DNA from: a virus
Virus record (IMG/VR): IMGVR_UViG_3300045988_174937
Strand: one strand, 5' to 3'
DNA: 64,000 nt
The notes below the pieces were generated by a model. That model saw only the letters and a program-made list of their open reading frames with translations, had not been told where the DNA came from and searched no databases. Every line of letters begins with the position of its first letter. Positions within the stretch are counted from its first letter, which is position 1. Position numbers and translations under genes: made by a program. Below are positions 16,172 to 60,274 of the stretch, one piece after another.

Positions 16172-16804
16172 ATGAAAGCGTCGGAAAAAGCCTACAAAGA
16201 ATTAGAGTATTTAGCTGTTAAATACGCCAACAAGCTATACTCCTATGAAGAGTTGTCACTGGAACGTGACGACCTCTTGCAAGAATTTCGTTTGAAAATT
16301 TTCACTTCTATAAAAGCCTACGGGCGTCGTTGGCTGGCATATCGCCGCGGTGAGGCCCCTAAGCCAGTTCCCCTTAAATACTATGTCGAATGCGCTTGTT
16401 CTAACAAGGGTAATGATATTATGCGTGCTATTCGGAAGGAGAACTACAAACTACGCATCGACCAAACAGCGTATGATTATGGCGTGGAAGATACTGTACA
16501 TGTAGATTCCGGAAAAGATAAATTCGTACTCAATGGCGTTGACGTTTTGGCTAATTTGACTGGTGTAAAGCGTGTTATATTTTCGATGCATGTACGCGGT
16601 CAAAGTAAGAAATTAATGGCGCGTATATTACGCACACCGTTTGCTGTGGCCGAGGGTTACGACCCTAATATGATGATTAACGATGCTAAAATGCTTGTCG
16701 ATAAAATAATCGAAGACCAGAAGCAGTATTTGTTGAACAACCATCGTGCAGCGTTATATTATACACCAACGCGTTACGATTACTATCGTGTACAAGAAGA
16801 TTGA
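16172..16804 (+). CDS. putative sigma-70/ECF-like transcription factor
   Basis: Region-2-like ERDDLLQEFRLKIFTSIKAYGRRW and region-4-like LTGVKRVIFSMHVRGQSKKLMARIL. Sits directly behind promoter P1. Confidence 0.4.
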   Translation: MKASEKAYKELEYLAVKYANKLYSYEELSLERDDLLQEFRLKIFTSIKAYGRRWLAYRRGEAPKPVPLKYYVECACSNKGNDIMRAIRKENYKLRIDQTAYDYGVEDTVHVDSGKDKFVLNGVDVLANLTGVKRVIFSMHVRGQSKKLMARILRTPFAVAEGYDPNMMINDAKMLVDKIIEDQKQYLLNNHRAALYYTPTRYDYYRVQED

Positions 16805-16833
16805 CCAAATTGTCTAACAAAAAGTATAACAAC

Positions 16834-17874
16834 ATGGCAACTAAACTTTCCAAAGTGCAGGTCGAAAAGATGAATGACCTGGATCTCGGTTTCACGGCAA
16901 AAACCGAAGAACAAGCAAGAGAACAACTCCTGGAGTGGCTGGAAGCACATGGTCTTCCGGGCATGGAACAGGAAACGTTCGACAACCTCCTGGACATTGT
17001 CGGTTCGATGTCTTCCATTTCCAGCGACGAAGCTCAGGTTGCTGCTCCTAATTTCGCCGAGGCCGAGGCTGATGAACTGGCTAAGGAGGCTGCTGAGGAA
17101 GAAGCTGAGGCTGATGACGACGAAGAGGAAGAAGAGGTCCCCGCTCCCGCTGAGGCTGTAGAAGCTGAAGAGGAGAAGCCCGCCGCCAAAGAAAAGACCG
17201 CTCCGGCCAAGAAAAAAGCCGCTAAGGCAGCGAAGAAACCTGCGGCCAACAAGCGCGGTGTGCGCTTGGTTCCGCAGAAGAGTAAGGAAGACCTGGCTAA
17301 ACTGCAGGAACTCCTTGGCGATTTGTTCCCGACGGACAAGTACGAGTATGTTCCGGTGTCGCGTGGTATTTCAATCAAGTACCGCGGTACAAACTCCAAA
17401 CAGGTGGCGATTATGTTCGAGAACGTCTACCTCAAAGACGGCGAACCGTCGACTACTAACGTCGTTCTGAACGCATTCCGGAATCAAACGCTTCAGGACA
17501 AACTCACCGACGACGGTGTTCAGTTCGACCAAACGTGGAATGCGTTGCCGCTGTTCAAGAACATCGATTGGAACGAGGCTCTGGAACTCGTCGGTAACTA
17601 CATGAGCGACATCCAGCAGGTAGTGGCCAACACGGACAATCGACTTGGGCGTAACCGCGCTAAGATGGAGGAGGGGCTCAAGGCCAACGACAAGAAGCCG
17701 GCAAAGAAAGCCGCCGCTCCGGTCGCTAAGAAAGCCGCTCCTGCGCCCGCTGCGAAGAAAGCCGCCTCCAAGGCTGAAGCCAAGGCCGAGCCTACCGAGG
17801 ACCCCAAGGCTAAGGCCCGCGCTGCGTTGCTGAAAGCGGCCGCAGCTAAGAAAGCTAAAGCCTCCAAGAAATAA
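16834..17874 (+). CDS. Lys/Ala-rich histone H1-like (putative DNA-binding) protein with an acidic tract
   Basis: ATG at 16834. Acidic stretch EEEAEADDDEEEEE, then AKKAAKAAKKPAANK. C-terminus is KKPAKKAAAPVAKKAAPAPAAKKAASKAEAKA...AAAKKAKASKK. Confidence 0.5.
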   Translation: MATKLSKVQVEKMNDLDLGFTAKTEEQAREQLLEWLEAHGLPGMEQETFDNLLDIVGSMSSISSDEAQVAAPNFAEAEADELAKEAAEEEAEADDDEEEEEVPAPAEAVEAEEEKPAAKEKTAPAKKKAAKAAKKPAANKRGVRLVPQKSKEDLAKLQELLGDLFPTDKYEYVPVSRGISIKYRGTNSKQVAIMFENVYLKDGEPSTTNVVLNAFRNQTLQDKLTDDGVQFDQTWNALPLFKNIDWNEALELVGNYMSDIQQVVANTDNRLGRNRAKMEEGLKANDKKPAKKAAAPVAKKAAPAPAAKKAASKAEAKAEPTEDPKAKARAALLKAAAAKKAKASKK

Positions 17875-17915
17875 ACCCGGAAGGGAGGATACGAGATAGG
17901 TTACTAAATTACCCG

Positions 17916-17941
17916 CCCCGGTCGTCATGGCCGGGGTTTTT
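17916..17941 (+). terminator. intrinsic terminator
   Basis: CCCCGG (17916-17921) pairs with CCGGGG (17931-17936) around a 9-nt loop, followed by TTTTT. Confidence 0.7.
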
Positions 17942-17992: not shown

Positions 17993-19210
17993 ATGAAGCA
18001 AGAATCAATTTCCAAGGCCGAAACGGGCATTAGCCGTTTTGAGTTTGACTATCGGCGGCGTGTGGTATTTACCGACCCGCGCGGTTCGTTCGCCGAGGTG
18101 TATCCGTATATCAACCGCACGATGATGACGACGCTCCCGCTTCAGGATTCTCGTGCTGGTAAGGTACGCGAACTGCTCGACGTCAAGACCATCATCAACA
18201 ACCCGTATCGCCGCTGTGTAGGCGGTTACGCCCGCAACATCAACGTCTTCTTCCTGCTGGCTGAAGCTATGTGGATAGTTACGGGCCGCAAGGACGTCGA
18301 GTTCCTGAAAATCTTCAACGGTAAGATGGTCGATTTTTCCGATAATGGCGTTACGTTCCACGCCCCTTACGGCTGGCGTTTGCGTCACTGGGGTATTTCG
18401 TCCGAGGGCGAGTCGATGGACCCGGGCCTGGACCAGGTAAAGGAAGCCATTCGCCTGCTGAGCGCTGACCCGGAAACGCGTCAGGTGGTGATGTCGATTT
18501 GGAATCCTAAGTTTGACCTCGGCGTGAAATCGAAAGACTTGCCGTGTAACGACATGGTGATGCTGAAAATCCGCGACGGGAAACTCGTTACCACGGTCCA
18601 GAATCGTTCGAACGACCTCCACTGGGGCTTACCCACGAACATCTTCCAGTTCTCGTTCCTGACGGAGGTAATGTCCCTCTGCTTGGGGGTAGAGTTAGGC
18701 GTTCAGACTCACAATTCGCAGTCGCTCCATATCTACGAATGGAATAATATCGCCGAGCAGATGAGCGAACTTTTCGCGTCCAATAATACGCGCCGCAGTT
18801 TGTACTGCGAGGGAGCGATGTCGTACATGATGGACTTTAAGTTCGAATCGGAGGTTCCGGTAAACCGCTTGTGTGAAATAACGGCCTTTATGGAAGAGAT
18901 GATAAATCGCTTGGCAATGCGGCACGCAAAAGGCGATATCTTGGAAGATGAGGCCGGGTTCGAGAACTACGTGTTTGAGAAATCGACCTATTTCTGGGTA
19001 GTTTATCAGCTGTTGAAGGTGTACGTCTTCTACAAGCGCAATATTGGCGCCTACGCGGATGACCGCGATACGTTGCTGAAGTCGTGCTATGCGCTGGTGG
19101 ACCGTATTGCAGGGGCCGTATCCGTTGAAGAAAAGTGGGACTACCTGATGCTGGCTCGCAATTTCTTCGCGGCAAGGTTATCTAACGCAGAAACCTGTAA
19201 ACTCCTGTAA
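17993..19210 (+). CDS. thymidylate synthase-family enzyme (ThyA / pyrimidine hydroxymethylase superfamily) with a long C-terminal extension
   Basis: DQVKEAIRLLSADPETRQVVMSIWNP...DLPCNDMVMLKIRDGKLVTTVQNRSNDLHWGLPTNIFQFSFL...SLHIY aligns with E. coli ThyA [25 protein letters not shown]...[41 protein letters not shown]...DTHLY. 405 aa against about 264 for ThyA. Confidence 0.7.
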   Translation: MKQESISKAETGISRFEFDYRRRVVFTDPRGSFAEVYPYINRTMMTTLPLQDSRAGKVRELLDVKTIINNPYRRCVGGYARNINVFFLLAEAMWIVTGRKDVEFLKIFNGKMVDFSDNGVTFHAPYGWRLRHWGISSEGESMDPGLDQVKEAIRLLSADPETRQVVMSIWNPKFDLGVKSKDLPCNDMVMLKIRDGKLVTTVQNRSNDLHWGLPTNIFQFSFLTEVMSLCLGVELGVQTHNSQSLHIYEWNNIAEQMSELFASNNTRRSLYCEGAMSYMMDFKFESEVPVNRLCEITAFMEEMINRLAMRHAKGDILEDEAGFENYVFEKSTYFWVVYQLLKVYVFYKRNIGAYADDRDTLLKSCYALVDRIAGAVSVEEKWDYLMLARNFFAARLSNAETCKLL

Positions 19211-19211
19211 T

Positions 19212-20906
19212 ATGACTGACTCGCTACGTCGGTGGGCGGAAGATAACTATCTGGCTATCGAAGAAAAGCGCGACGACGAATTGAACATAATCGCTATTGA
19301 GGGCGTGGGGGACTTCTTGTACCTCCACCCCGACGATAGCGGAAAGATAATCGACGAACGGTTCTCGTTCGCGGTAACGGCTGACGAATTCGACGCGCTG
19401 TACGATGGCGTGGTGAAATACATCCTCTTCGAGTTTGGCGGCAAGTTCTACTACTCGAATATCAAAAAGGACCACCTGCGGCTGGATAAAACCGTGGTTT
19501 TCCGTCCCGAATTCCGCGACTTCAAGTATCTCGGCACCAGTACGGCTGAAGAATTGGTTCCGTTCGTTCACCTGGGGGTTCATAGCGAATACGAGTTCTT
19601 GAACGGTTCGTCAAACTGCGAAGAATGGGCTGCTAAGGCCAAATTCAACCGTATGACGGCTCTTGGTATTTGTGACCGTAATACGCTGGCTGGCACGCTC
19701 GCCTTTCAGACCGCTTGCTTGGGCAAGGGGTTGAAACCTATCATCGGCGAAACTGTTACCGTGGCTTGTAACTACGACCCGGCGGCTGACGTTCAGGAAA
19801 CCTTTTCGCTGAAACTCTACGCCATGAATACCCAGGGATGGCGAAACCTGCTGCTGGTTAATAAGGCTATCAACGTCGATTATCAAGGATTCATACCCGC
19901 GGAAGAACTCTACAAGTTAGGCCGCGGCCTGGTATGTGTAATACCGCCTGATAGCGAATTAAACTATTTCAAGGGGGACGTCGAGCGTTGCAAGCGGTTA
20001 TTGACGGCCTATCACGCCGCATTCGACCGTGTGTACTACCAGATTGATACGGTGGAGTACACATCCGAAACCCTATTCCGCGACCACTTGGAAAGTATTG
20101 ATACCTACGTATGCCGCTGTCGTAAGATTAAACTCTACCGACAGACGCCGCCGCTCGTTATAAACGACTCGTATTACCTCGACGCCGAAGAGGCTCCGCT
20201 GAAGTCGCTTCTGAACAAGGTAGCAGGCGTGGTCAATGCCGAAAGTGCGACCCAGTATTTCAAAAACTCAAAAGAGACGATTCTGGCGTATGAAGAGTGG
20301 ATGGATGTAGCCGCGCCCCTTTACGAAAAGATAATCGTTGGTATGACCAATTCCAGCACGTTGGCGGAGAGTATTGACTTTAAGATACCCACCGGAATAC
20401 GTCACCTGCCGAAATACGAGTTTGTTAAAACTACGGTTGAAGACGCCTTTTTCGAGAAACTGGAAGCGGGCGTACAGGAGCGGCTGGTAGGTAAGGTTGA
20501 TAACCTCGATCAGTATCTGGCGGAGTTGGAAAAGGAATGTGCCATCATCGTACCGAACGGGCTGTGTGACTACTTTATGATACTTTGGGACATCATGAAC
20601 TGGTGTCGCGAGCAGGGTATCATGACTGGGTCAGGTCGTGGCTCGGTTTGCGGTTCGTTGATTGCGTATTGCCTGTACATCACGGACGTGGACCCGCTGA
20701 AATACAATCTCATGTTTGAGCGATTTTTGAACTCTAATCGTGTTGAACCAGAAACAATATTTACGGTCGAGTTGGAAAATGGAGATAAATATAAAATCAA
20801 AAAGGGTGAAGAGATAAAAACAGTTGACGGAAAGTTTGTTAAGATTGAATCTGAAGCGGATTTGGTTGATTTGGATGTTGATGTAACTACTCTGAGACTT
20901 TCCTAA
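19212..20906 (+). CDS. dnaE: DNA polymerase III alpha, N-terminal part (PHP domain and first half of palm)
   Basis: PHP motif FVHLGVHSEYEFLNG and palm motif GSGRGSVCGSLIAYCLYITDVDPLKYNLMFERFLNSNRV. Homology then ends and a stop follows 54 codons later. Confidence 0.85.
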   Translation: MTDSLRRWAEDNYLAIEEKRDDELNIIAIEGVGDFLYLHPDDSGKIIDERFSFAVTADEFDALYDGVVKYILFEFGGKFYYSNIKKDHLRLDKTVVFRPEFRDFKYLGTSTAEELVPFVHLGVHSEYEFLNGSSNCEEWAAKAKFNRMTALGICDRNTLAGTLAFQTACLGKGLKPIIGETVTVACNYDPAADVQETFSLKLYAMNTQGWRNLLLVNKAINVDYQGFIPAEELYKLGRGLVCVIPPDSELNYFKGDVERCKRLLTAYHAAFDRVYYQIDTVEYTSETLFRDHLESIDTYVCRCRKIKLYRQTPPLVINDSYYLDAEEAPLKSLLNKVAGVVNAESATQYFKNSKETILAYEEWMDVAAPLYEKIIVGMTNSSTLAESIDFKIPTGIRHLPKYEFVKTTVEDAFFEKLEAGVQERLVGKVDNLDQYLAELEKECAIIVPNGLCDYFMILWDIMNWCREQGIMTGSGRGSVCGSLIAYCLYITDVDPLKYNLMFERFLNSNRVEPETIFTVELENGDKYKIKKGEEIKTVDGKFVKIESEADLVDLDVDVTTLRLS

Positions 20907-21012
20907 ATGAGACAATGTTATTATGATGGCGATACTCCGCCGTTTGGGTGGAATAGAGGAAGAGTGAAACATGAAAATAAAAAAGGTTGAGAAAATATCA
21001 GTTGCCCGTCAG
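20742..21012 (+). other. A/T-rich insertion splitting dnaE (candidate ORF-less intron, or a genuine gene split)
   Basis: It lies between FERFLNSNR and DSMPDIDCDF, which are contiguous in canonical Pol III alpha. The two exon-like parts are in different frames. These boundaries follow the 5'-exon-U / intron-terminal-G convention but are not proven. Confidence 0.35.
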
Positions 21013-23814
21013 GACAGCATGCCTGATATCGACTGCGACTTCCCGGTGGCGTTCCGTGATACGGTGAAAGAGTACATGGCCCGTCGTTACGGCGTGGACC
21101 ACGTTTGTTCCGTGGGTACGTACACGCGCATGAAACTGAAGACCTGTTTGAAGGACTTTGGTAAGGTTATGGGCGTTCCGTTTGCGGTGATGAATAAACT
21201 CACCAAGGACATTGACGACCAAATAGAATACACGTGGGGCGACCTGTTCAACTACGCCGCAACGTCGCGGGAATTATTCCGTTTCGTCCAGGACCACCCG
21301 GAGTTGGTACACATGACGAAATACGCCCTTACACAGTGTAAGACGGGTTCGGTTCATCCGTCGGCCGTTATCATCGTACCCAAGGAAGACGAAGATGGTC
21401 ACCCCATCGACCTTTACGGGTGGATGCCTATGAAACGCATGGGTGGCGTGCTGGTCTCCGAGTGGGAGGGTAAGTATATCGACAAGTCAGGGTTCTTGAA
21501 AGAGGATATTTTGGGCCTCAACCAACTGGATAAGTTTTCGTCTATTCTGAAACTTATCGCCAAGAACCGCAAGGAGCAAATCGACGTCAACACCATTCCG
21601 TTCGGCGACGAGGAGGTATTCCGGTATTTCCAGCGCGGGTGGTGTGAGGATGTGTTCCAATTTGGTGCTATGGGGTTGATGAATTACTGCCGCGAGGCCA
21701 AGCCGCATAGCCTGGACGACCTTATCGCTATGACGGCGTTGTTCCGGCCCGGTCCTATGGATGTAAAGGCGCACGAAACGTTCGTTGAAATTAAGAACGG
21801 CGCCAGGAAGCCTAAGTTCGACCCCGGTATGGAGGAAATCACGCGCGACACCTATTCGCTTTATACCTACCAGGAGCAGATAATGAAAGCGATGGTTGTC
21901 GGAGGATTAACCCCCGTTGAGTCAGATGAATGTCGTACTTACATCAAGAAGAAAAACCACGAAGCGCTGGCCCAGTTTAAGGGAAAGTTCGTAAATGGAT
22001 ATTCGGCGTTGATAGAATCACGAGGCGTTGAATCTAAACGCGCCGCGGCCCAGGCTTCTGAGGTTTGGGACAAGATGCTGGCATTTGCTTCGTATGGCTT
22101 CAATAAGTGCTTGGCAGGTTCGGAACGTATTCGTCGCGTAGGTATTACGCGCGGTTCGTATGCTCCCACTATCGAAGAGATGTACGAAATAAAGAATCGC
22201 ACGTCTGATTTATGGCTATCTCACGAATCGTTAAGCGATAAGTATATTCGTTCAGGGTACGGAATGTGCTGGTCGTTAAACGACGAAGGCAGGTTGGTTC
22301 GTAATAAAATCGTTGACATCCGTTTTGAAGGTGTGCGTCCAGTTTACGAAATCACTGTACGTTCCGGCGAAAAGATACGCTGTACGTCTAATCACCGCTT
22401 CCCGACACTGGCGGGTGAAATGTCTATAGATAGCGGTTTGGCAGTTGGTGCTCGATTGTATATCTGGGCTGGATACGAAGAAACGAATAAGGATTATTCG
22501 TTCCAACGCGGTAGGTCTCAAAACTATCCTACGAAGGGTCAGTGCGGATTCCAGCGTCAAGAATATCATCCCACCGTTGACTTTGAAAATTTCAAACGCC
22601 AACACGCCGGATGCCCGTGTGATAAGTGCGGCAAAGTGGGAAAACGCATGGAGGCTCATCATATGGATGGGAATCGGGCGAATAATGACGTTAGCAACCT
22701 GATGTGGCTCTGTAATTCGTGTCATAAGAAAATCCACTTTGAAACGCTACCGCGTCACCGAATGGGTGAAAAGGGATTGTTAACACGATTGGAAGAAATC
22801 GTCAATATTCAGTGCGTAGGTGAAGAAAAAGTCTATGACGTGGAGGTGAGCGGCAACGTGTCACACACGTTTTTGACTGACGGTGGTGTGGTAACGTGTA
22901 ATTCTCACGCCGTGGCCTATACCATGATGTCGTACTGGTCGCAGTGGTTTAAGGTCAACTACCCACTGGAGTTCTGGACGACGTCGCTTCAGTATACCTC
23001 GAAGGAATCCGATATCCCGTATCGCTTGGTGGAGATGAAGAAAACCGGGGCTGAAATTGAGGTCCGTCCGCCGGATATCAATTTCTCAGGTGAAACCTTT
23101 ACGTGCGACCCCAAGACGAACCGTATCTTCTTTTCGCTGGGTAAGGTCAAGGGAGTAGGCGAGCGGGCGTTAACGCTATTGAAAGCCATGAAAGACGAGC
23201 ACGGCGAAGTGTTCTCGTTTGAGGACTTCATAACCTCCGCCCCGAAAGGCATAAACCGTACCGTGGTGCTGCGCCTTATTATGGCTGGAGCGTTCGACCT
23301 GGTAGAAGATATCCGGAACCCGCGTCAGCGTCTGGACATCGTCAAGCAGTATCTCGAACGTCGCGGCGAACCGCTTTCCGACGAATTCACTTCGCCTGAT
23401 GCTCACACTAACGCCTGGTGGGTCTTCAAACAGCGTGAATTAACCGGGTACGGCGAAGTAGACTACGAACGTATGATGAACGAATACGGACTCGGAAAAC
23501 GAATGGTCCGGCTGTACGTTACCGCCGCCGAGTTTGAGCGCAAACACGAAGGTGACGAGGTTTGCATCGTTGGCCGTGTGAATAACGTATTCGAACGCCA
23601 AACCAAGGGTGGCGATTCTTACGGAGTACTGCAAGTGGAGGTCAACGACCTCATCATCCAGATTACGTTGTGGCCCGACTTTTGGCTTCATCAGCCGGAA
23701 AACGAAGCTACGCTGTTGAACCGTATCGTGGCCGTTTCAGGGCGTGTGAATTATTTCGCTGGAAAGAAGACCGTACAGTCTTCACAATCTACAAGGTTAG
23801 AGATATTACAATAG
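20971..23814 (+). CDS. dnaE: DNA polymerase III alpha, C-terminal part (catalytic aspartates, fingers, OB region), containing an intein
   Basis: After a 15-aa leader it resumes with SMPDIDCDF. Further motifs: LFRPGPMD, and YGFNK / SHAVAYTMMSYWSQWFKVNYPLEFW split by the intein. Confidence 0.85.
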   Translation: MKIKKVEKISVARQDSMPDIDCDFPVAFRDTVKEYMARRYGVDHVCSVGTYTRMKLKTCLKDFGKVMGVPFAVMNKLTKDIDDQIEYTWGDLFNYAATSRELFRFVQDHPELVHMTKYALTQCKTGSVHPSAVIIVPKEDEDGHPIDLYGWMPMKRMGGVLVSEWEGKYIDKSGFLKEDILGLNQLDKFSSILKLIAKNRKEQIDVNTIPFGDEEVFRYFQRGWCEDVFQFGAMGLMNYCREAKPHSLDDLIAMTALFRPGPMDVKAHETFVEIKNGARKPKFDPGMEEITRDTYSLYTYQEQIMKAMVVGGLTPVESDECRTYIKKKNHEALAQFKGKFVNGYSALIESRGVESKRAAAQASEVWDKMLAFASYGFNKCLAGSERIRRVGITRGSYAPTIEEMYEIKNRTSDLWLSHESLSDKYIRSGYGMCWSLNDEGRLVRNKIVDIRFEGVRPVYEITVRSGEKIRCTSNHRFPTLAGEMSIDSGLAVGARLYIWAGYEETNKDYSFQRGRSQNYPTKGQCGFQRQEYHPTVDFENFKRQHAGCPCDKCGKVGKRMEAHHMDGNRANNDVSNLMWLCNSCHKKIHFETLPRHRMGEKGLLTRLEEIVNIQCVGEEKVYDVEVSGNVSHTFLTDGGVVTCNSHAVAYTMMSYWSQWFKVNYPLEFWTTSLQYTSKESDIPYRLVEMKKTGAEIEVRPPDINFSGETFTCDPKTNRIFFSLGKVKGVGERALTLLKAMKDEHGEVFSFEDFITSAPKGINRTVVLRLIMAGAFDLVEDIRNPRQRLDIVKQYLERRGEPLSDEFTSPDAHTNAWWVFKQRELTGYGEVDYERMMNEYGLGKRMVRLYVTAAEFERKHEGDEVCIVGRVNNVFERQTKGGDSYGVLQVEVNDLIIQITLWPDFWLHQPENEATLLNRIVAVSGRVNYFAGKKTVQSSQSTRLEILQ
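22108..22902 (+). mobile_element. intein with HNH homing-endonuclease domain inside dnaE
   Basis: In-frame 265 codons. Cys1 (CLAGSERI), block B IRCTSNHRF, HNH HHMDGNRANNDVSNLMWLCNSCHKKIH, block F/G VYDVEV..HTFL..GGVVTCN, then +1 Ser. The exteins rejoin to the canonical YGFNK-SHA. Confidence 0.8.
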
Positions 23815-23830
23815 TAGAACAAAATCGGTT

Positions 23831-24478
23831 ATGCAAAAGGATGATTTAATCAAACTCTTCAGTCGTGACCACCTGGCGCGGTTGGATAACATCAAGCAGT
23901 GGTTGGAGTACGACCGCCACCAGCAGGAAAGCGTTTCACAACATTCATACAAGGTATCAGTCTTCACGATGTGCCTGCTGGACTATCTCTGGCCCGGAGG
24001 GGACGATAATAATACGGTGGCCGCGTTTAAGTATCAGACGCTGAAGATGGCGCTGATGCACGACTTCGACGAGGCTGTTCTGCGTCGTGATATCACCCAC
24101 GAACTGAAATACAACGCCTACAACGGGTCGGAACTGCGTAACGTTTTGGACGAGTTTGTCGCTCACCAGGTAGCGGACGAATTTGGTGACGATTCAGTAG
24201 TCTCCAAAACGCTTTCTAAGGATGCGCCGTATTACGACGTTGCTCACGCGATTGTAAAGGTTGCTGATTGGATGGCGTTGCTGTATTTCCTGAAGCGCGA
24301 ACTGGCTATGGGGAACCGCTCGTGGCCCTTGAATTTGCTGCCGTACTGCAAGGAAAGCTACCGTAAGGCGGTTTCAACGTTACAAAGTACGTGTGTATCG
24401 GCGGATATTTGTGAGCAAGAGCGCCTGATGTACGTATGGGTAGGAGCCATTAATGACTTACAAAACGATATTATTTAA
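23831..24478 (+). CDS. HD-domain 5'-deoxynucleotidase (YfbR-like)
   Basis: ESVSQHSYKVSVFT, MALMHDFDEAVLRRDITHELKY and VKVADWMALLYFLKRELAMGN align with E. coli YfbR [35 protein letters not shown] and [21 protein letters not shown]. Confidence 0.7.
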   Translation: MQKDDLIKLFSRDHLARLDNIKQWLEYDRHQQESVSQHSYKVSVFTMCLLDYLWPGGDDNNTVAAFKYQTLKMALMHDFDEAVLRRDITHELKYNAYNGSELRNVLDEFVAHQVADEFGDDSVVSKTLSKDAPYYDVAHAIVKVADWMALLYFLKRELAMGNRSWPLNLLPYCKESYRKAVSTLQSTCVSADICEQERLMYVWVGAINDLQNDII

Positions 24479-30908: not shown

Positions 30909-31760
30909 ATGTACGGTATAATTTACAAAACTACGAACCTCGTCAACGGCAAGATTTACATCGGCCAACACGTTTGCAAATCTGACGAGTTTGACGGGTA
31001 TTTGGGGAGCGGAAGGAATTTAATCTTCGCCGTTAGGCATTACGGTCCTGAGAACTTCAAGCGCGAAACACTCTGCGTATGCGATACCCAGCTACAACTC
31101 GACGCTTGGGAGATGCTTTACATCAAGAAATTCGATTCGACCAACAAGAAGGTTGGCTACAACATCCTCCCTGGTTCATCGAATATGTTTGGTCAAGTAA
31201 ACCCGGCTAAAATTCCTGAGGTTAAGTGTAAAATGTCAATCGCCGCTAAACGGAGGTTATCTTCTCCAGCAGCGCGAGAAGCAATAAGGATTCGGATGAC
31301 AGGAATTAAGCAATCAGAAGAGTCAAAAGCCAAGAAGTCCCAATCTCTTATCGGGAGAATTATCACTGCAGAACACCGCGAAAAGATATCGAAAGCGTTA
31401 AGAGGAAAGAAAAAGACTCAAGAGCACATAAACAAAGTTGCCGAGGCGTTGCGCGGTAAACATCACACCGAAGAATGGAAAAGAAGACATTCGGAAATTA
31501 TGTCAGGGCGTGTACGAGGCGCAATGTCGGATGATACTAAACGCAAAATTTCTGAAGCTAACAAGAAATATTATAGTAAACATAAAAATGTGGTGTCGGA
31601 ACGGATGAAGAAATACTATTCTACTCATCCTCATCCGCTAACCGGAACACAATTTGTATGGATTAATAATGGATTGAAAAATAAACGTTTACCAAAGGGA
31701 GTTGTAATTCCCGATGGGTGGTCCAAGGGTATGATTCGTAACAACGTTATTATCTTATAG
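30909..31760 (+). CDS. free-standing GIY-YIG homing endonuclease with NUMOD3-like repeats
   Basis: MYGIIYKTTNLVNGKIYIGQH...YLGSG...E. The C-terminus has repeats EHREKISKALRGKKKTQEHINKVAEALRGKHHTEEWKRRHSEIMSGR. The gene is A/T-rich. Confidence 0.8.
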   Translation: MYGIIYKTTNLVNGKIYIGQHVCKSDEFDGYLGSGRNLIFAVRHYGPENFKRETLCVCDTQLQLDAWEMLYIKKFDSTNKKVGYNILPGSSNMFGQVNPAKIPEVKCKMSIAAKRRLSSPAAREAIRIRMTGIKQSEESKAKKSQSLIGRIITAEHREKISKALRGKKKTQEHINKVAEALRGKHHTEEWKRRHSEIMSGRVRGAMSDDTKRKISEANKKYYSKHKNVVSERMKKYYSTHPHPLTGTQFVWINNGLKNKRLPKGVVIPDGWSKGMIRNNVIIL

Positions 31761-50667: not shown

Positions 50668-50738
50668 TGGCCTGTGGTGTAATGGTAACACACCAGATTT
50701 TGGATCTGGCGTTGGAGGTTCGAATCCTTCCGGGCCGA
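50668..50738 (+). tRNA. tRNA-Gln(TTG): tRNA-Gln (anticodon TTG)
   Basis: Acceptor TGGCCTG / CGGGCCG plus discriminator A. Anticodon arm CCAGA-TTTTGGA-TCTGG, giving anticodon TTG at 50700-50702. T arm GGAGG-TTCGAAT-CCTTC. No encoded CCA. Confidence 0.85.
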
Positions 50739-50958
50739 CTAAACCCCCAATTAAAACCGCGTGTGGCAGACGTGGCCCGAAAGTCCATGGGTGAGGGGGT
50801 TTTTAAGAAATTTCGTTCGTTAACGTTGTGGCAGTTCGCCCGTGCCGGCAAAGGGAACACCAATAGGAACGGCAACCGACGAGCGCGGGGCGTGAAATAT
50901 CGCCCCGACCTTAAAGTCTTAACAGACTTCCATCAATCAAAGGTTTAATTCACCCCCG

Positions 50959-52967: not shown

Positions 52968-54659
52968 ATGGCTATTATGATACAACCAGCCCTCCCCCAT
53001 CCTTCATTCGTTGAGCCATCGTATAACCATCGTTTGGCTTGCTTGGAACTTGTAGATGAAATAATACAAGCCATGGATGAACGCGGTCTCAACGAAATGA
53101 TGAATGGCGATGTTCGTGATGTAGATGCCGTTTTCGACGCACTTATGCAGGATACCTACCGCGTTCTATACACAGGCGATATGTCTATTGATTTTCGTCC
53201 CAGATATGAAGAGAATCTATCAGCGGTCGTTGAAGATACCCTACGATGCGCCAATTTGACGTATTTCATCACTTCGGTCATCCCCGATTTTCAACTATCG
53301 TGGCACCACCTGGAGTGGGGAGAGTTAGTACAGCAACACAAGAAATTGTGTATCAATGCTGCTCGTGACCACGGAAAGTCGTTCTATTTCTCCAACGCCT
53401 ACGCCGCGTGGCAGTTATATCGCTATACACGCCCGCGCACAAGGAGTTATTCAAAGCGACCCACGGCGGCTTCGTCTAACCGCGGTTTCTTGTTTTCGTT
53501 CTCTTTACAACAGGGAATCGACCTCATGGAGATTTTGAAGGGGACTATCGAGGAGAATGACATTCTGAAGGAGCGGCTGTTCCCTCAGTCTACGGCCAAC
53601 AGTTGGTCTGCTACCAACATCGTATGTCGTAATGGAGCGCGGTTGACGGTAAAGGGTTTTGGCTCTTCGGTGCGTGGTGCTCACCCGTACTGGATTATCG
53701 TCGATGACGGCTTGAAGGACAACGTCATCTACTCCAGTCTTCAGCGAAATAAGTCCACCGACTATTTCCACTCCGTGATTATGAACATGCTCGTACCCGG
53801 CGGCCAGATTATCGTCGTCGGTACGCCGTTCCACGCCGAGGACCTTTACGGCGACCTCAAGACCAAGAACGGTTGGTTCGTTATCGAGTATCCGGCCATC
53901 TTCCCCGACGGGCGAATCCTTTGGCCCCAGCGCTGGTCGTTCAAGGACCTGATGGATAAAAAGGAGACTCAGGGTTCAATCATCTTCTCGCGTGAGAACC
54001 TTTGCCGCCCGATTACCAACGAGTCGTCAATATTCCCGATGGAAATCCTCACGCGTTCGCTACTGCGGATGGAAAATTACACGTTGGTGGATTCACGCGA
54101 AGAATTCCCTGTTAAGTTCTCCAAGGTGGTGGTCGGGTGTGACTTCGCTATTTCAGCCAACGTCGGCGCCGACTACGCCGTATTCAGCGTGTGGGGTATC
54201 GACGAGTTGACCGACGAACGCTGGTTGTTACACCTCTACCGCGAAAAAGGTGTAAAGTTCTTCGAACAGATGAACGTCCTGCGCCGTATCAACTCCCACT
54301 TCCGGCCTGACCTTATCGTGATGGAGAATAACACATTCCAACAGATATTCGTTGAGACGGCCGACACCGAGGGGATGCCCGTTATCGGTCACACTACGGG
54401 AATTGATAAGTACGACTTGAAAACCGGGTGGCCACACCTCTCAACGCTATTCGAACGTGGCAAAATCCACATTCCAGTGGGCAACGTCTACTCTCAGCAG
54501 GTCAAGGACCTCATATTCCAAGACCTCGGTTCCGTTGCCTTTACCGAAAAGGGGCTGGAGAGCGTCGGCAGTCACGATGATATTTCGTCGTCGTTCTGGT
54601 TGGCCGACTTGGCGGCGTCGCGTATGACCACTGGATTTAAGTTCGATTTGTTAGGATAA
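52968..54659 (+). CDS. terL: terminase large subunit
   Basis: Walker A-like AARDHGKS, Walker B-like YWIIVDDG, nuclease-domain VVVGCDFAISANVGADYAVFSVWG. 563 aa. Confidence 0.75.
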   Translation: MAIMIQPALPHPSFVEPSYNHRLACLELVDEIIQAMDERGLNEMMNGDVRDVDAVFDALMQDTYRVLYTGDMSIDFRPRYEENLSAVVEDTLRCANLTYFITSVIPDFQLSWHHLEWGELVQQHKKLCINAARDHGKSFYFSNAYAAWQLYRYTRPRTRSYSKRPTAASSNRGFLFSFSLQQGIDLMEILKGTIEENDILKERLFPQSTANSWSATNIVCRNGARLTVKGFGSSVRGAHPYWIIVDDGLKDNVIYSSLQRNKSTDYFHSVIMNMLVPGGQIIVVGTPFHAEDLYGDLKTKNGWFVIEYPAIFPDGRILWPQRWSFKDLMDKKETQGSIIFSRENLCRPITNESSIFPMEILTRSLLRMENYTLVDSREEFPVKFSKVVVGCDFAISANVGADYAVFSVWGIDELTDERWLLHLYREKGVKFFEQMNVLRRINSHFRPDLIVMENNTFQQIFVETADTEGMPVIGHTTGIDKYDLKTGWPHLSTLFERGKIHIPVGNVYSQQVKDLIFQDLGSVAFTEKGLESVGSHDDISSSFWLADLAASRMTTGFKFDLLG

Positions 54660-54693: not shown

Positions 54694-55218
54694 ATGGTTG
54701 TTAAATTTAAGAAAGTGCACCCCGAAGCCGTACTGCCGGCGTATGCTCACCCTGACGGTGAGGATAACGGACTGGACCTCGTGGCTGTGGCCGTAAAGGA
54801 AACCGAAGATTACATCGAATACGATACCGGCATCGCCGCTGAAATCCCCAAGGGGTACTGCGGCCTGCTGGTCCCGAATTCGCGTTGTTCGAAAATGGAC
54901 CTGGTGATGTGTAACGCGCCGGGCGTTATCGACCCAGGCTATCGCGGTACGATGCGCGCTCGTTACAAGAAGACGTGGCACTTACCGACGTTAGTCCACA
55001 GGTTCTTCAAGAGCGTCTGCGGATTGCTTTCCAACGTCTTCGGCGAGGTCGCCGGAATGAAGCCTCAAAACGTGAATATGAATACCAAGGAATTCAAGGT
55101 GGGTGACGTTGTGGCCCAGCTGGTCATCGTCCCCGCGCCGTATATCGAAGTGGAGGAAGCCGACACGCTGACGCCCTCGCTGCGTGACGCCGGAGGATTC
55201 GGTTCAACGATTAAATAG
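54694..55218 (+). CDS. dut: dUTPase (trimeric type) with an insertion between motifs III and IV
   Basis: Motifs NGLDLVA, VPNSRCS, GVIDPGYRGT, VGDVVAQLVI, RDAGGFGST. About 25-30 extra residues (KKTWHLPTLVHRFFKSVCGLLSNVFGEVAGMKPQNV) follow motif III. Confidence 0.8.
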   Translation: MVVKFKKVHPEAVLPAYAHPDGEDNGLDLVAVAVKETEDYIEYDTGIAAEIPKGYCGLLVPNSRCSKMDLVMCNAPGVIDPGYRGTMRARYKKTWHLPTLVHRFFKSVCGLLSNVFGEVAGMKPQNVNMNTKEFKVGDVVAQLVIVPAPYIEVEEADTLTPSLRDAGGFGSTIK

Positions 55219-55220
55219 CC

Positions 55221-55817
55221 ATGAAAACGATTCTCTTACACAATCCCGCCAAACAGGACAACGTCGAAGCGATGGCCGACGCGCTGGTAGAGTCGATGCG
55301 TTACGCCAATAGCGCGGTTGATTATCCCGATGTTTCCAAGGCCAAGCCTGATGACGGCGTTCCGGCCGAGTGGTTCTACAAGGCATACGTCGGTACGGCC
55401 CCCACGTCGGAACTCACGGCCATTCTCCAGTACACGCAGCAGCGGATGATCTTTGACCAGATTGGCGAAACGTTCCTCGGTATCGCCCTCACTGAGATGA
55501 AGCACTACGACCGATTAGGCGACTTCATTAACCGTATCGGAGGTAACGTATCGCGACCTGCGTTTTCGGCAGCCAAAGTGGACATTACGACCAAAAGCGC
55601 GGCCGAAGCCGTCCAGATCAACATCCGCGCCGAGCAGGACACCATCGCCGAGTACGAAAAACTCATTCAGCGTATTCAGGCCAACAACCCTACACCAACT
55701 GTGACCTCGGCGTTGGCCATCCAACTTATCAACAAGATTGTCGCCGACGAGCACGTACACGTCCGTCTGTTGGCGGAGTTGGCGCAATCCCTCGGCGAGG
55801 AAGACACTACGTTATGA
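55221..55817 (+). CDS. ferritin-like protein (Mn-catalase/CotJC-like family)
   Basis: SELTAILQYTQQ...FLGIALTEMKHYDRLGDFINRIGG...RAEQDTIAEYEKLIQ...IVADEHVHVRLL matches the four-helix di-metal pattern of CotJC-type proteins. Confidence 0.5.
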   Translation: MKTILLHNPAKQDNVEAMADALVESMRYANSAVDYPDVSKAKPDDGVPAEWFYKAYVGTAPTSELTAILQYTQQRMIFDQIGETFLGIALTEMKHYDRLGDFINRIGGNVSRPAFSAAKVDITTKSAAEAVQINIRAEQDTIAEYEKLIQRIQANNPTPTVTSALAIQLINKIVADEHVHVRLLAELAQSLGEEDTTL

Positions 55818-58962: not shown

Positions 58963-59277
58963 ATGAACGCATGGAGATATTTCAAAATAGGTGACATCGT
59001 GACGGACCCCGAGGTGTGGGGCCGGACGACTTTTGTAATACGCTCGTTTCACGGCAACGACTACTGCCCATTAATCGCTGCAGAGTCCCTGAAACCAATC
59101 CGCGGTAAACGCATAAGGGTAAACCTCGGCGTACCTGAAACGCGACTTGTAAACGCCCCAAAACGTCCGTTGATGAAGATTGCGGATGATACGTTACGGA
59201 GGTTGGTCGGAAAAAGCACGGAAGCACGGCGTGAATTGTTAATTAGAACTTATCGTAAGCAAAATGGCGACATTTGA
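58963..59277 (+). CDS. hypothetical protein
   Basis: 104-aa ORF. Confidence 0.5.
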   Translation: MNAWRYFKIGDIVTDPEVWGRTTFVIRSFHGNDYCPLIAAESLKPIRGKRIRVNLGVPETRLVNAPKRPLMKIADDTLRRLVGKSTEARRELLIRTYRKQNGDI

Positions 59278-60274
59278 CCATTACCCCTGGGCTGATAAAC
59301 TACCTGCTGCCACACTTGACGTCAGCGAGGAGCACTATCACGATTTCTTCCGGACTATGTTTGAGCGTCAGATGATATGGAAGCGGCGGTTCCTGGACCA
59401 GAAGCCGCGTCCGTGGACTGATGACCCCATATTACGCGACTACAAATTCACCAACGTATATCGCGAACTGGACCGTAATTCACAGTGGCAGATACGCAAC
59501 ATCCTCCTGGACGACGAACTGACGTTGACGAATATGGTATGGAAGATGATGGTGTTCCGGTATTTCAACAATCCCCCGACGTTTGAATACGCACGTGAAA
59601 AGTACGGCTGGGGTGCAGGTATTCCGGATTACAACCAGTACGACGAGAAGACTTTTGCTGAAATGGTAGCGTCGTATCGGTTGTCGGGGCATAACCCCTT
59701 CACTACGGCTTATCTTATCAACTCGATGGCTGCGCCCGGTAAGACACGCGATGAATGTTACACAGGAACGGTCGTTCCTACGTTACATCGCCGTTTGTAT
59801 GAGCTGATGCGCGTTGTATTAACGGCAAAAACCCCTGAGGACATTATTCAGTTCCTAAGAACACTTCCAGCGTCAGCGGCGTTTATCGCTCATGAGTTCT
59901 ATCAGGATTTCACCTATATACCGCGCTACACTTATCGTCGTTTTATGCGCTTTACCCAGGATGACTACACTAACGTGGGTCCAGGTGCATCAACAGGATT
60001 ACGTTTGATATTTCCATCACTAAAATGTCAAGTAGATGGTATATATCGCCTGCGCGACGAAGCCGCAAAAGCGTTGTCTGTTTATGGAGATTTCCCTTAT
60101 CTGCACTGGCACAAACTGGAGAACGGGTACTACACTACACCGAATGGCGAATTAACGCTTCACCAAGTAGAGATGTGGTTGTGTGAGTATCAAAAGTATT
60201 GGAAAGTCAAAATCGGCCAAGGAAAGCAGCGGAGCCTTTTCCAGCCGCATACAAAAAGTGATGCATTTCAATGA
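59264..60274 (+). CDS. candidate DNA thymidine-hypermodification enzyme (aGPT-Pplase-like)
   Basis: FERQMIWKRRFLDQKPRPWTDDPILRDYKFTNVYRELDRNSQW matches the signature I recall for the alpha-glutamyl/putrescinyl thymine pyrophosphorylase family. This is recalled from memory and was not searched. Confidence 0.4.
   Translation: MATFDHYPWADKLPAATLDVSEEHYHDFFRTMFERQMIWKRRFLDQKPRPWTDDPILRDYKFTNVYRELDRNSQWQIRNILLDDELTLTNMVWKMMVFRYFNNPPTFEYAREKYGWGAGIPDYNQYDEKTFAEMVASYRLSGHNPFTTAYLINSMAAPGKTRDECYTGTVVPTLHRRLYELMRVVLTAKTPEDIIQFLRTLPASAAFIAHEFYQDFTYIPRYTYRRFMRFTQDDYTNVGPGASTGLRLIFPSLKCQVDGIYRLRDEAAKALSVYGDFPYLHWHKLENGYYTTPNGELTLHQVEMWLCEYQKYWKVKIGQGKQRSLFQPHTKSDAFQ

Follow-up and report, generated by a model that had tools for sequence, protein, structure and literature searches.

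A ThyA-family gene at 17993-19210

The DNA analysed here (the window, 64,000 nucleotides of the IMG/VR virus record IMGVR_UViG_3300045988_174937) is a segment of a phage genome with nearly all genes on the + strand, and the gene in question belongs to the thymidylate synthase (TS, ThyA) family and lies at 17993-19210. An earlier note, made from the nucleotide sequence, had described a 405-aa open reading frame (ORF) at this position as a divergent and extended ThyA homolog, and had proposed that it encodes a deoxyuridine monophosphate (dUMP) hydroxymethylase rather than a TS. The ORF was present exactly as described, on the + strand with an ATG start. Residues 86-261 match the Pfam family Thymidylat_synt (PF00303; E = 3.7e-23, 82 bits versus a cutoff of 24.3 bits), and residues 36-353 match PHROG 5131, 'thymidylate synthase' (E = 4.8e-70). 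Together with the residue alignment described below, these matches support a ThyA fold and bear out the alignment of the core with ThyA in the note. A total of 627 full-length homologs were found at E ≤ 1e-10, and the family comprised 506 cluster representatives at E ≤ 1e-30. With hundreds of full-length homologs, the ORF is far beyond chance. An exact-sequence look-up of the 405-aa protein on public contigs returned no record.

The phage homology search covered 50,697 phage records. The top match was SPO1 gp29 (172 bits, 45.7% identity over residues 54-248, E = 3e-45), followed by SP8 and then by SP10 gp188, which is annotated as a dUMP hydroxymethylase. M6/YuA-like Pseudomonas phages at 133 bits and Stenotrophomonas phage Sonora came next, with 31% identity over residues 51-399, an alignment that takes in the C-terminal extension. 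The ViI-like phages ranked lower (100-110 bits), and canonical phage TS came last (55-77 bits). SPO1 gp29 is annotated and cited as a characterised dUMP hydroxymethylase (PMC8989533, PMC6400193), and the ranking fits known biology, in that the top-matching phage groups all carry 5-hydroxymethyldeoxyuridine (5-hmdU) or 5-hmdU-derived bases in their DNA (PMC8989533, PMC5889632).

A neighbour-joining tree was built from 190 core columns, with 200 bootstraps scored on bipartitions, for four canonical TS, T4 gp42, SPO1, SP10, PaMx11, Sonora, a ViI-like enzyme and five query-family members. The sequences of the dUMP-hydroxymethylase type, ten in all, split from TS and T4 gp42 in 100% of bootstraps, the query family was monophyletic in 100%, and it was sister to SPO1/SP10 in 70%. 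The phylogenetic check suggested in the earlier note, against ThyA, SPO1 gp29-type and T4 gp42-type enzymes, came out on the SPO1/SP10 side of that fully supported split. The 405-aa protein is closer to the characterised dUMP hydroxymethylases than to other characterised ThyA-family enzymes.

Diagnostic residues, predicted structure and assignment

Residues were numbered by alignment with E. coli ThyA (Ec). Cys185 in KDLPCN is the catalytic Ec Cys146, the N-R-S-N-D motif corresponds to Ec Q165-R166-S167-C168-D169, and Ec Asn177, a position at which T4 gp42 carries Asp, corresponds to Asn216 of LPTN. These alignments confirmed the catalytic Cys of DLPCN, the RS.D motif and the LPTN Asn that the earlier note had picked out, as well as its equation of that Asn with ThyA N177 and with the Asp of dCMP (deoxycytidine monophosphate) hydroxymethylases. 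The two departures from ThyA that it had listed, PCH to PCN and YQRS to QNRS, were also found. The signature residues D182/C185/N186/N204/D208/N216, which include those of the two altered motifs, are invariant across 49 homologs, Asp182 and Asn216 among them. The catalytic Cys and the residues of the dUMP and folate sites (Ec E58, Y94, R126, C146, R166, S167, D169, H207 and Y209) are all kept, and they do not vary among the 49 homologs.

The residue that activates the attacking water in T4 dCMP hydroxymethylase is Asp145, placed three residues ahead of the catalytic Cys; this water adds to the exocyclic methylene, and D145N is inactive. In TS, Leu143 excludes water, and in ThyA solvent is kept from the site by Trp83 together with the C-terminal tail (PMC6400193). 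A 2026 study summarised three diagnostic positions: 177 for substrate choice (Asn for dUMP, Asp for dCMP), 143 for the reaction (Leu for methylation, Asp or Glu for hydroxymethylation), and 169, where D169N is the mark of 5-hydroxy-dCMP synthases (PMC13326640). In the 405-aa protein, Asp182 of KDLPCN, three residues before the catalytic Cys, occupies the Ec Leu143 position, and the three diagnostic positions read Asp143, Asp169 and Asn177, the same as in SPO1 gp29. D143, N147, N165, D169 and N177, together with the absence of W80/W83, are common to the query family, SPO1, SP10, PaMx11, Sonora and the ViI-like enzyme, which have 119-162 residues after the Tyr209 position. The four canonical TS read L143, H147 and W80, with 55-63 residues past Tyr209. 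T4 gp42 reads D143 and D177, with only 28 residues past the Tyr.

The AlphaFold2 model of the protein (pLDDT 83.9, pTM 0.89) has a ThyA core followed by five helices, and the C-terminal tail of ThyA is replaced in the model by a helical bundle. The two parts are as follows.

Residues ~34-262 of the 405-aa protein: ThyA core.
Residues ~289-393 of the 405-aa protein (289-393 in the model): C-terminal five-helix extension.

The Pfam ThyA match leaves out the final 144 residues (262-405). Past the conserved Tyr248 (Ec Tyr209) there are 157 residues, versus 55 in E. coli ThyA and 157 in both SPO1 and SP10. The C-terminal extension of 130-150 aa given in the earlier note therefore holds for the part that cannot be aligned with ThyA (144 aa), and not as net extra length, since the net C-terminal gain over ThyA is ~100 aa; a 33-aa N-terminal extension comes in addition. 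The best match of the model in the PDB by Foldseek was the CMP hydroxymethylase MilA (E = 3e-15, ~350-360 aligned columns), in an alignment that takes in part of the C-terminal helices. ThyA structures aligned over 260-290 columns, and the MilA and ThyA matches had E-values from 1e-15 to 1e-12. Because no dUMP hydroxymethylase structure was among the PDB matches of the model, the top rank of MilA reflects what has been solved.

Every public source that names the family (Pfam, PHROG, JGI) calls it 'thymidylate synthase', a label that appears to be automatic annotation. Taken literally, the label would make the protein a bona fide divergent TS, producing thymidine monophosphate (dTMP) and dihydrofolate (DHF) for phage DNA synthesis. 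It shares with E. coli ThyA and phage Td the fold, the nucleophile, the dUMP-binding residues and the uracil-specifying Asn177, and the core catalytic residues Cys146, Glu58, Tyr94, Arg166, Ser167, Asp169, Asn177, His207 and Tyr209 fit a TS as well. It differs from ThyA by L143D, H147N and Q165N, by the loss of W80/W83 and by the tail that has become a helical bundle, at ~21% identity. Thus, in place of the set that seals the TS active site for hydride transfer (Leu143, His147, Trp80/Trp83 and the C-terminal tail), the query has Asp, Asn, a gap or non-Trp residue, and a replaced tail. The protein also fell under the cutoff in 7 of 7 NCBIfam TS equivalog models, the best of which gave 77.4 bits versus a cutoff of 327 (TS cutoffs span 108-427). 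Its separation from TS has full bootstrap support, and its closest relatives are characterised dUMP hydroxymethylases. No dihydrofolate reductase (DHFR) was found by Pfam among the scanned ORFs, which counts for a hydroxymethylase because a TS would need DHFR to recycle DHF. The gene co-occurs with one for a PF18723 protein, a family specific to thymidine-hypermodification clusters (see below). A true TS is highly improbable.

Another pyrimidine substrate was considered next to dUMP, either dCMP, as for the hydroxymethylase T4 gp42, with a product that would feed the glycosyltransferases of relatives (see below), or CMP/UMP, as for Streptomyces MilA. MilA is the top PDB match both by sequence and by structure, its C-terminal helical extension superposes in part, and T4 gp42 and MilA share the water-activating Asp three residues before the Cys (PMC6400193). 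The glycosyltransferases encoded in the same species and in a sister lineage resemble enzymes best known for acting on 5-hydroxymethylcytosine (5-hmC), namely T4 alpha-glucosyltransferase (AGT) and the TET-associated glycosyltransferase family. Against such a substrate stands position 177, which is Asn in 49 of 49 family members and Asp, the cytosine-specific residue, in T4 gp42 and MilA (PMC13326640). The latter two enzymes also have a Ser-x-Tyr motif, and T4 gp42 is short. Of the two dCMP hydroxymethylase hallmarks, Asp177 and a Ser/Thr two residues before the catalytic Tyr, the query has neither, reading Asn216 and Ala124-Pro-Tyr126. The rank of MilA carries the limit given above, the best phage matches are dUMP enzymes, the PF18723 partner is tied to 5-hmdU pathways, and T4 AGT has been crystallised with DNA containing 5-hydroxymethyluracil (HMU; PDB entries). 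We give this alternative very little credence.

The protein might instead carry out a different and undescribed C5 chemistry on dUMP, such as direct hydroxylation, or capture of the methylene intermediate by some nucleophile in place of water. The ThyA superfamily recently yielded an unexpected synthesis of 5-hydroxy-dCMP (PMC13326640), in the query clade the N-terminal extension is peculiar to it and the C-terminal bundle is divergent, and the downstream toolkit is non-canonical. Where 5-hydroxy-dCMP synthases of the RB69 gp48 type have D169N and N177D, the query retains Asp208 and Asn216; the diagnostic D169N is thus absent. All active-site positions examined are identical to those of SPO1 gp29 and SP10 gp188, which make 5-hydroxymethyl-dUMP. 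A new chemistry of this kind is very unlikely.

At every feature checked, the 405-aa protein agrees with the dUMP hydroxymethylases of the SPO1 gp29 type, and it departs from TS, dCMP hydroxymethylase and 5-hydroxy-dCMP synthase. With SPO1 gp29, SP10 gp188 and SP8 it shares all the examined active-site positions, the loss of W80/W83 and the ~157 residues past the catalytic Tyr. It differs from this group in a C-terminal extension that aligns only weakly and in the 33-aa N-terminal extension. Judged from these comparisons, the protein is very probably a dUMP 5-hydroxymethylase of the SPO1 gp29 type and not a thymidylate synthase, as the earlier note had proposed; homology, the tree, the diagnostic residues, the NCBIfam models, the structure and the PF18723 context all support that proposal.

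In addition to the public label, several observations weigh against this assignment. The 46% identity to SPO1 gp29 is confined to the core, and support for the sister relationship is 70%. The second published hydroxymethylase signature, Ser/Thr-x-Tyr, is absent from the query; because SPO1 and SP10 lack it too, the motif seems to be specific to the dCMP type. Neither a dCMP deaminase, nor a deoxynucleoside monophosphate (dNMP) kinase, nor a recognisable dTTPase, all typical of HMU phages, was found in the window. Searches by tblastn and Pfam of the window and of the remainder of a relative's genome gave no P-loop 5-hmdU DNA kinase (PF18748/PF18747), the enzyme by which known hypermodifying phages are defined. 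Finally, the clade is known from metagenomic sequence, the phage is uncultured, and the assignment draws on sequence and a structural model.

From the fold, the family placement, the diagnostic residues and the gene context, we infer the product, the fate of the cofactor, the incorporation into DNA and the further modification of the base. Cys185 would attack C6 of dUMP, as in ThyA, and a one-carbon unit from 5,10-methylene-tetrahydrofolate (THF) would give an exocyclic 5-methylene intermediate. An active-site water, presumably activated by Asp182, would then add to the methylene and yield 5-hydroxymethyl-dUMP and THF, whereas in ThyA the next event is hydride transfer from THF. The solvent shields of ThyA (the tail at the C-terminus and Trp80/Trp83) are missing from this active site, and Asn216 (Ec Asn177) would keep the specificity for uracil.

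Gene context within the window

The features that bear on the putative hydroxymethylase gene are listed here by position.

17915-17941, + strand: terminator-like hairpin with a 9-bp GC-rich stem, a 5-nt loop and a U-run, in the interval that separates the hydroxymethylase gene from its upstream neighbour.
19212-20906 and 20971-23814, + strand: split DNA polymerase III (PolIII) alpha-type replicase (Pfam PHP, DNA_pol3_alpha, DNA_pol3_finger, HHH_6, Intein_splicing, HNH).
23831-24478, + strand: YfbR-like HD-domain 5'-deoxynucleotidase (PF12917, E = 8.2e-11, above cutoff).
54694-55218, + strand: dUTPase with an internal insertion (PF00692, E = 1.6e-9, two stretches).
59264-60274, + strand: stand-alone clade 1 aGPT-Pplase of 336 aa (Pfam HMUDK_hel, PF18723, E = 3.5e-50).

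The hairpin folds at -18 kcal/mol (z = -3.8), and 0 of 200 shuffles folded as well. A consensus terminator scan did not list it; direct folding supports it. The hydroxymethylase gene follows the hairpin, and its stop (19210) adjoins the start of PolIII-alpha (19212); it is therefore the first gene of the replicase transcription unit. The second replicase ORF (20971-23814) carries an intein with an HNH endonuclease at residues ~400-636, and the split in the replicase falls inside the NTPase domain. This replicase is the presumed consumer of 5-hmdUTP.

The match of the 23831-24478 protein to the NCBIfam 5'-deoxynucleotidase model was weak and below cutoff. By its family it is a candidate dTMP/dNMP phosphatase that may deplete the thymidylate pool. 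PaMx11 also has an HD protein adjoining its hydroxymethylase. BLASTP gave no significant similarity between the window protein and that protein, PaMx11 gp52, and since the two are not detectably similar no claim of orthology is made. In the dUTPase, the Pfam and NCBIfam matches are split by an insertion of ~40 aa, and the NCBIfam dut model gave 67.8 bits versus a cutoff of 103 bits. The enzyme would supply the dUMP substrate and keep dUTP out of DNA. A recently described enzyme of the HMU pathway is a bifunctional dTTPase/dUTPase (PMC13458397).

The 59264-60274 protein is homologous by tblastn to residues 317-597 of SP10 gp186, the C-terminal domain of a verified 5-hmdU DNA kinase (PMC8989533), and it has neither a Walker A motif nor a kinase domain. 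It is also homologous to PaMx11 gp50 and Sonora gp42, whose genes sit directly beside the hydroxymethylase genes of those phages; the phage homologs are annotated as aGPT-pyrophosphorylase. In Pfam the former clade 1 is now HMUDK_hel (PF18723), kept apart from ADDT (PF18724), the former clade 2, which comprises the proven amino acid:DNA transferases. The Glu-x3-Cys pair E303/C307 is invariant in an alignment of both clades, and a conserved Cys and a neighbouring Glu are essential in clade 2 transferases (PMC8989533). The protein is probably catalytically active, since its pair aligns with the essential one, despite the lack of a kinase that would form the substrate presumed for it. M6 gp55, the putative counterpart of PaMx11 gp50 by gene order, was not needed for the reconstituted glycine-transfer step (PMC8989533). 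In distant relatives the PF18723 gene is kept at 54-59% identity.

The earlier note had placed a dUTPase, a YfbR-like nucleotidase and an aGPT-Pplase-like protein in the window, and all three were found, at 54694-55218, 23831-24478 and 59264-60274, respectively. The family match of the third stood, with the refinement that it belongs to clade 1 (HMUDK_hel) and not to clade 2, the clade of experimentally proven transferases. The further claim, that these genes form a toolkit for replacing or hypermodifying thymidine, was borne out in part: the PF18723 protein, the dUTPase and the HD nucleotidase are there, and the set is not the standard one of M6, ViI or SP10.

Other genes of the window were recorded alongside these. 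Just upstream of the hydroxymethylase gene, the product of 16801-17874 is 357 aa in length and has long tails rich in Lys and Ala (AKKAA-type repeats) as well as an acidic stretch of Glu and Ala; by its composition it resembles histone H1-like or other DNA-coating proteins. Right after the dUTPase gene, 55221-55817 encodes a ferritin-like or rubrerythrin-like protein (PF00210, E = 7.7e-10), a di-iron protein in a nucleotide-metabolism neighbourhood. A GIY-YIG/NUMOD3 homing-endonuclease-like gene at 30909-31760, between a Rad50-like gene and the genes downstream, is the second mobile element of the replication module. A single tRNA-Gln (anticodon TTG) lies at 50668-50739. PHROGs searches of ten unannotated mid-sized window proteins gave nothing informative.

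Modification genes of relatives and the biology of the clade

Because the window is only part of a genome and the contigs of its relatives are ~100 kb, we walked around the IMG/VR contig IMGVR_UViG_3300045988_155488 (100,053 bp), whose portal and baseplate proteins are 96% and 99% identical to those of the window. The walk covered the whole circle outside the window, and more than 100 loci were tiled. Kinase and transferase genes were sought by tblastn with SP10, Sonora and PaMx11 proteins, by a Walker A scan and by Pfam on ~80 ORFs. The negative result for the kinase is given above, and no small Walker A protein was found in the window. An amino acid:DNA transferase (PF18724) was not found in the window or in relatives; the controls PaMx11 gp46 and Sonora gp39 matched PF18724. 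The standard cassette of the M6/ViI/SP10 type was rejected, since the searches for the kinase and for the clade 2 transferase were all negative. For the same reason the standard hypermodification route is not encoded, barring a non-homologous or very divergent enzyme.

The comparison with known systems is in keeping with this. SPO1 stops at 5-hmdU and has no aGPT-Pplase, and in SP10 the PF18723 domain is fused to the P-loop 5-hmdU DNA kinase, which is absent here. The SPO1 group belongs to the Herelleviridae, whereas the window comes from an uncultured phage of ~100 kb with a terminase nearest to those of Bacteroides phages. M6/YuA, PaMx11, Sonora and ViI have a ThyA-like hydroxymethylase with the same signature, accompanied by a PF18723 gene and an HD-domain gene, as here. 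In those phages the genes form a compact cassette with a 5-HMUDK kinase and a PF18724 transferase, along with tailoring enzymes of the pyridoxal phosphate (PLP), radical S-adenosylmethionine (SAM), flavin adenine dinucleotide (FAD) or acetyltransferase type, while here the genes are dispersed. An enzyme of the SPO1 gp29 type is thus a kind already known, and the set of partners matches no reconstituted pathway.

Candidate partners were found ~9-12 kb past the portal gene on contigs of relatives. They are given below by locus (L070 on contig 155488; L088 on contig 165188, which is of the same species as the window).

L070:10001-12431: radical SAM/SPASM protein and TET-associated glycosyltransferase (TAGT; PF20691, E = 5.4e-13).
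L088:10001-13109: radical SAM protein, 226-aa ORF and 495-aa protein.
L088:10945-11625: the 226-aa ORF, with QPHSDD and GHPFH motifs; homologs in L031, L036, L039, L046 and L114.
L070:12470-14218, with a homolog at L088:13141-14931: conserved 583-aa protein just downstream of the glycosyltransferase, bearing GGAGIGKS (Walker A) and LLFDD (Walker B-like).

The same-species contigs, with 97-99.5% DNA identity to the window, keep the radical SAM gene and the 226-aa ORF, and in them the 495-aa protein replaces TAGT. The glycosyltransferase slot is therefore swapped between lineages, with a GT-A TET-associated enzyme in the sister lineage and a GT-B enzyme in the species of the window. An exchange of this kind would be the diversification expected under pressure from host defences. 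Distant relatives, whose portal is 60-68% identical, conserve the pair of 226-aa ORF and GT-B gene as well as the PF18723 gene, but not the radical SAM gene. An HPYCRC motif closes the ORF that precedes the radical SAM gene (L088:9069-10001). In a distant relative (L114:7743-9212), the HPYCRC ORF is fused to a Pfam 'InPase' domain (PF18823), whose place is taken in the window's clade by the radical SAM gene.

For the 495-aa protein, neither sequence nor profile searches against Pfam and the PDB gave a significant match, and cultured phage records had no match to it. Among its homologs, two bear the JGI name glycosyltransferase and one has a GT4 domain. The AlphaFold2 model of a 52%-identical homolog (pLDDT 79.9) has a GT-B fold, with BshA, T4 AGT and MshA as the best structural matches. 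T4 AGT gave the highest TM-scores (0.53-0.54), including entries with HMU-containing DNA. On this model, the 495-aa protein would be a GT-B glycosyltransferase like T4 AGT that acts on DNA. The predicted GT-B fold of its homolog is the likeness to T4 AGT; the protein has no detectable sequence similarity to any solved glycosyltransferase, and its presumed acceptor would be 5-hmdU and not 5-hmC, the base for which T4 AGT and the TET-associated enzymes are best known.

The QPHSDD and GHPFH motifs of the 226-aa ORF look like those that bind zinc in LmbE/PIG-L de-N-acetylases. Profile searching gave no significant hit, with the LmbE-type deacetylase Dbv21 found only at E = 2.4 and nothing significant in Pfam or the PDB, and an LmbE-like deacetylase is an unproven reading of the motifs. 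The structural neighbours of the GT-B model, BshA and MshA, are N-acetylglucosamine (GlcNAc) transferases, and in bacillithiol and mycothiol synthesis the products of BshA and MshA are deacetylated by LmbE-type enzymes. Near the modification genes, the 583-aa protein is the sole P-loop protein without an assignment, and it has no similarity to known 5-hmdU DNA kinases.

Put together with the dUMP 5-hydroxymethylase assignment, these genes are consistent with the following pathway. The dUTPase would supply dUMP, the YfbR-like nucleotidase would plausibly drain dTMP, host kinases would make 5-hmdUTP, and the phage PolIII-alpha-type replicase would place 5-hmdU in DNA instead of T. It is likely that the phage replaces or decorates thymine in its DNA. 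After replication the base would probably be modified further, by a route other than the canonical one of kinase and amino-acid transferase. Partners for the later steps would be the clade 1 aGPT-Pplase and, outside the window, the small conserved 226-aa ORF and the DNA-glucosyltransferase-like GT-B enzyme.

We suggest, tentatively and as a possibility at rather less than even chances, that the clade makes 5-hmdU before replication and then decorates it with neither a known kinase nor an amino acid:DNA transferase. The most likely version may be direct glycosylation of 5-hmdU in DNA, by analogy a phage counterpart of trypanosomal base J. If the motifs of the 226-aa ORF are read as above, addition of GlcNAc followed by de-N-acetylation to an amino sugar is possible. 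Further action on the base by the clade 1 aGPT-Pplase, with its Glu/Cys pair, or by the radical SAM enzyme is conceivable. A survey has associated phage DNA glycosyltransferases with ThyA-family genes (bioRxiv 10.1101/2023.12.21.572611). In the literature, no report of glycosylated 5-hmdU in a phage was found.

A near-identity DNA search of window positions 12-32 kb against cultured phages gave no match, and the phage therefore has no close cultured relative. The nearest cultured relatives of its large terminase (52968-54659) are 37% identical and come from Bacteroides thetaiotaomicron phages (the DAC and SJC03 series); the terminase also matches a human faecal 'Bacteriophage sp.' contig. These matches suggest gut Bacteroidales as the host, and the phage is probably gut-dwelling.

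The main immediate value of the finding is a corrected annotation, in that hundreds of metagenomic proteins named 'thymidylate synthase' are most likely dUMP hydroxymethylases. A common clade of ~100 kb phages, whose nearest cultured relatives infect Bacteroides, probably carries a non-canonical thymine. DNA with modified bases is resistant to restriction and to cleavage by CRISPR systems, and it introduces a bias into virome library preparation and sequencing. The clade is without the kinase and the transferase that define all reconstituted thymidine hypermodification pathways, yet it has a clade 1 aGPT-Pplase and a DNA-glucosyltransferase-like enzyme. It is therefore well suited to asking about the role of clade 1 aGPT-Pplases and about whether glycosylated 5-hmdU is made by phages. 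The clade likely harbours a thymidine modification route that is so far undescribed, perhaps one that leads to glycosylated 5-hmdU.

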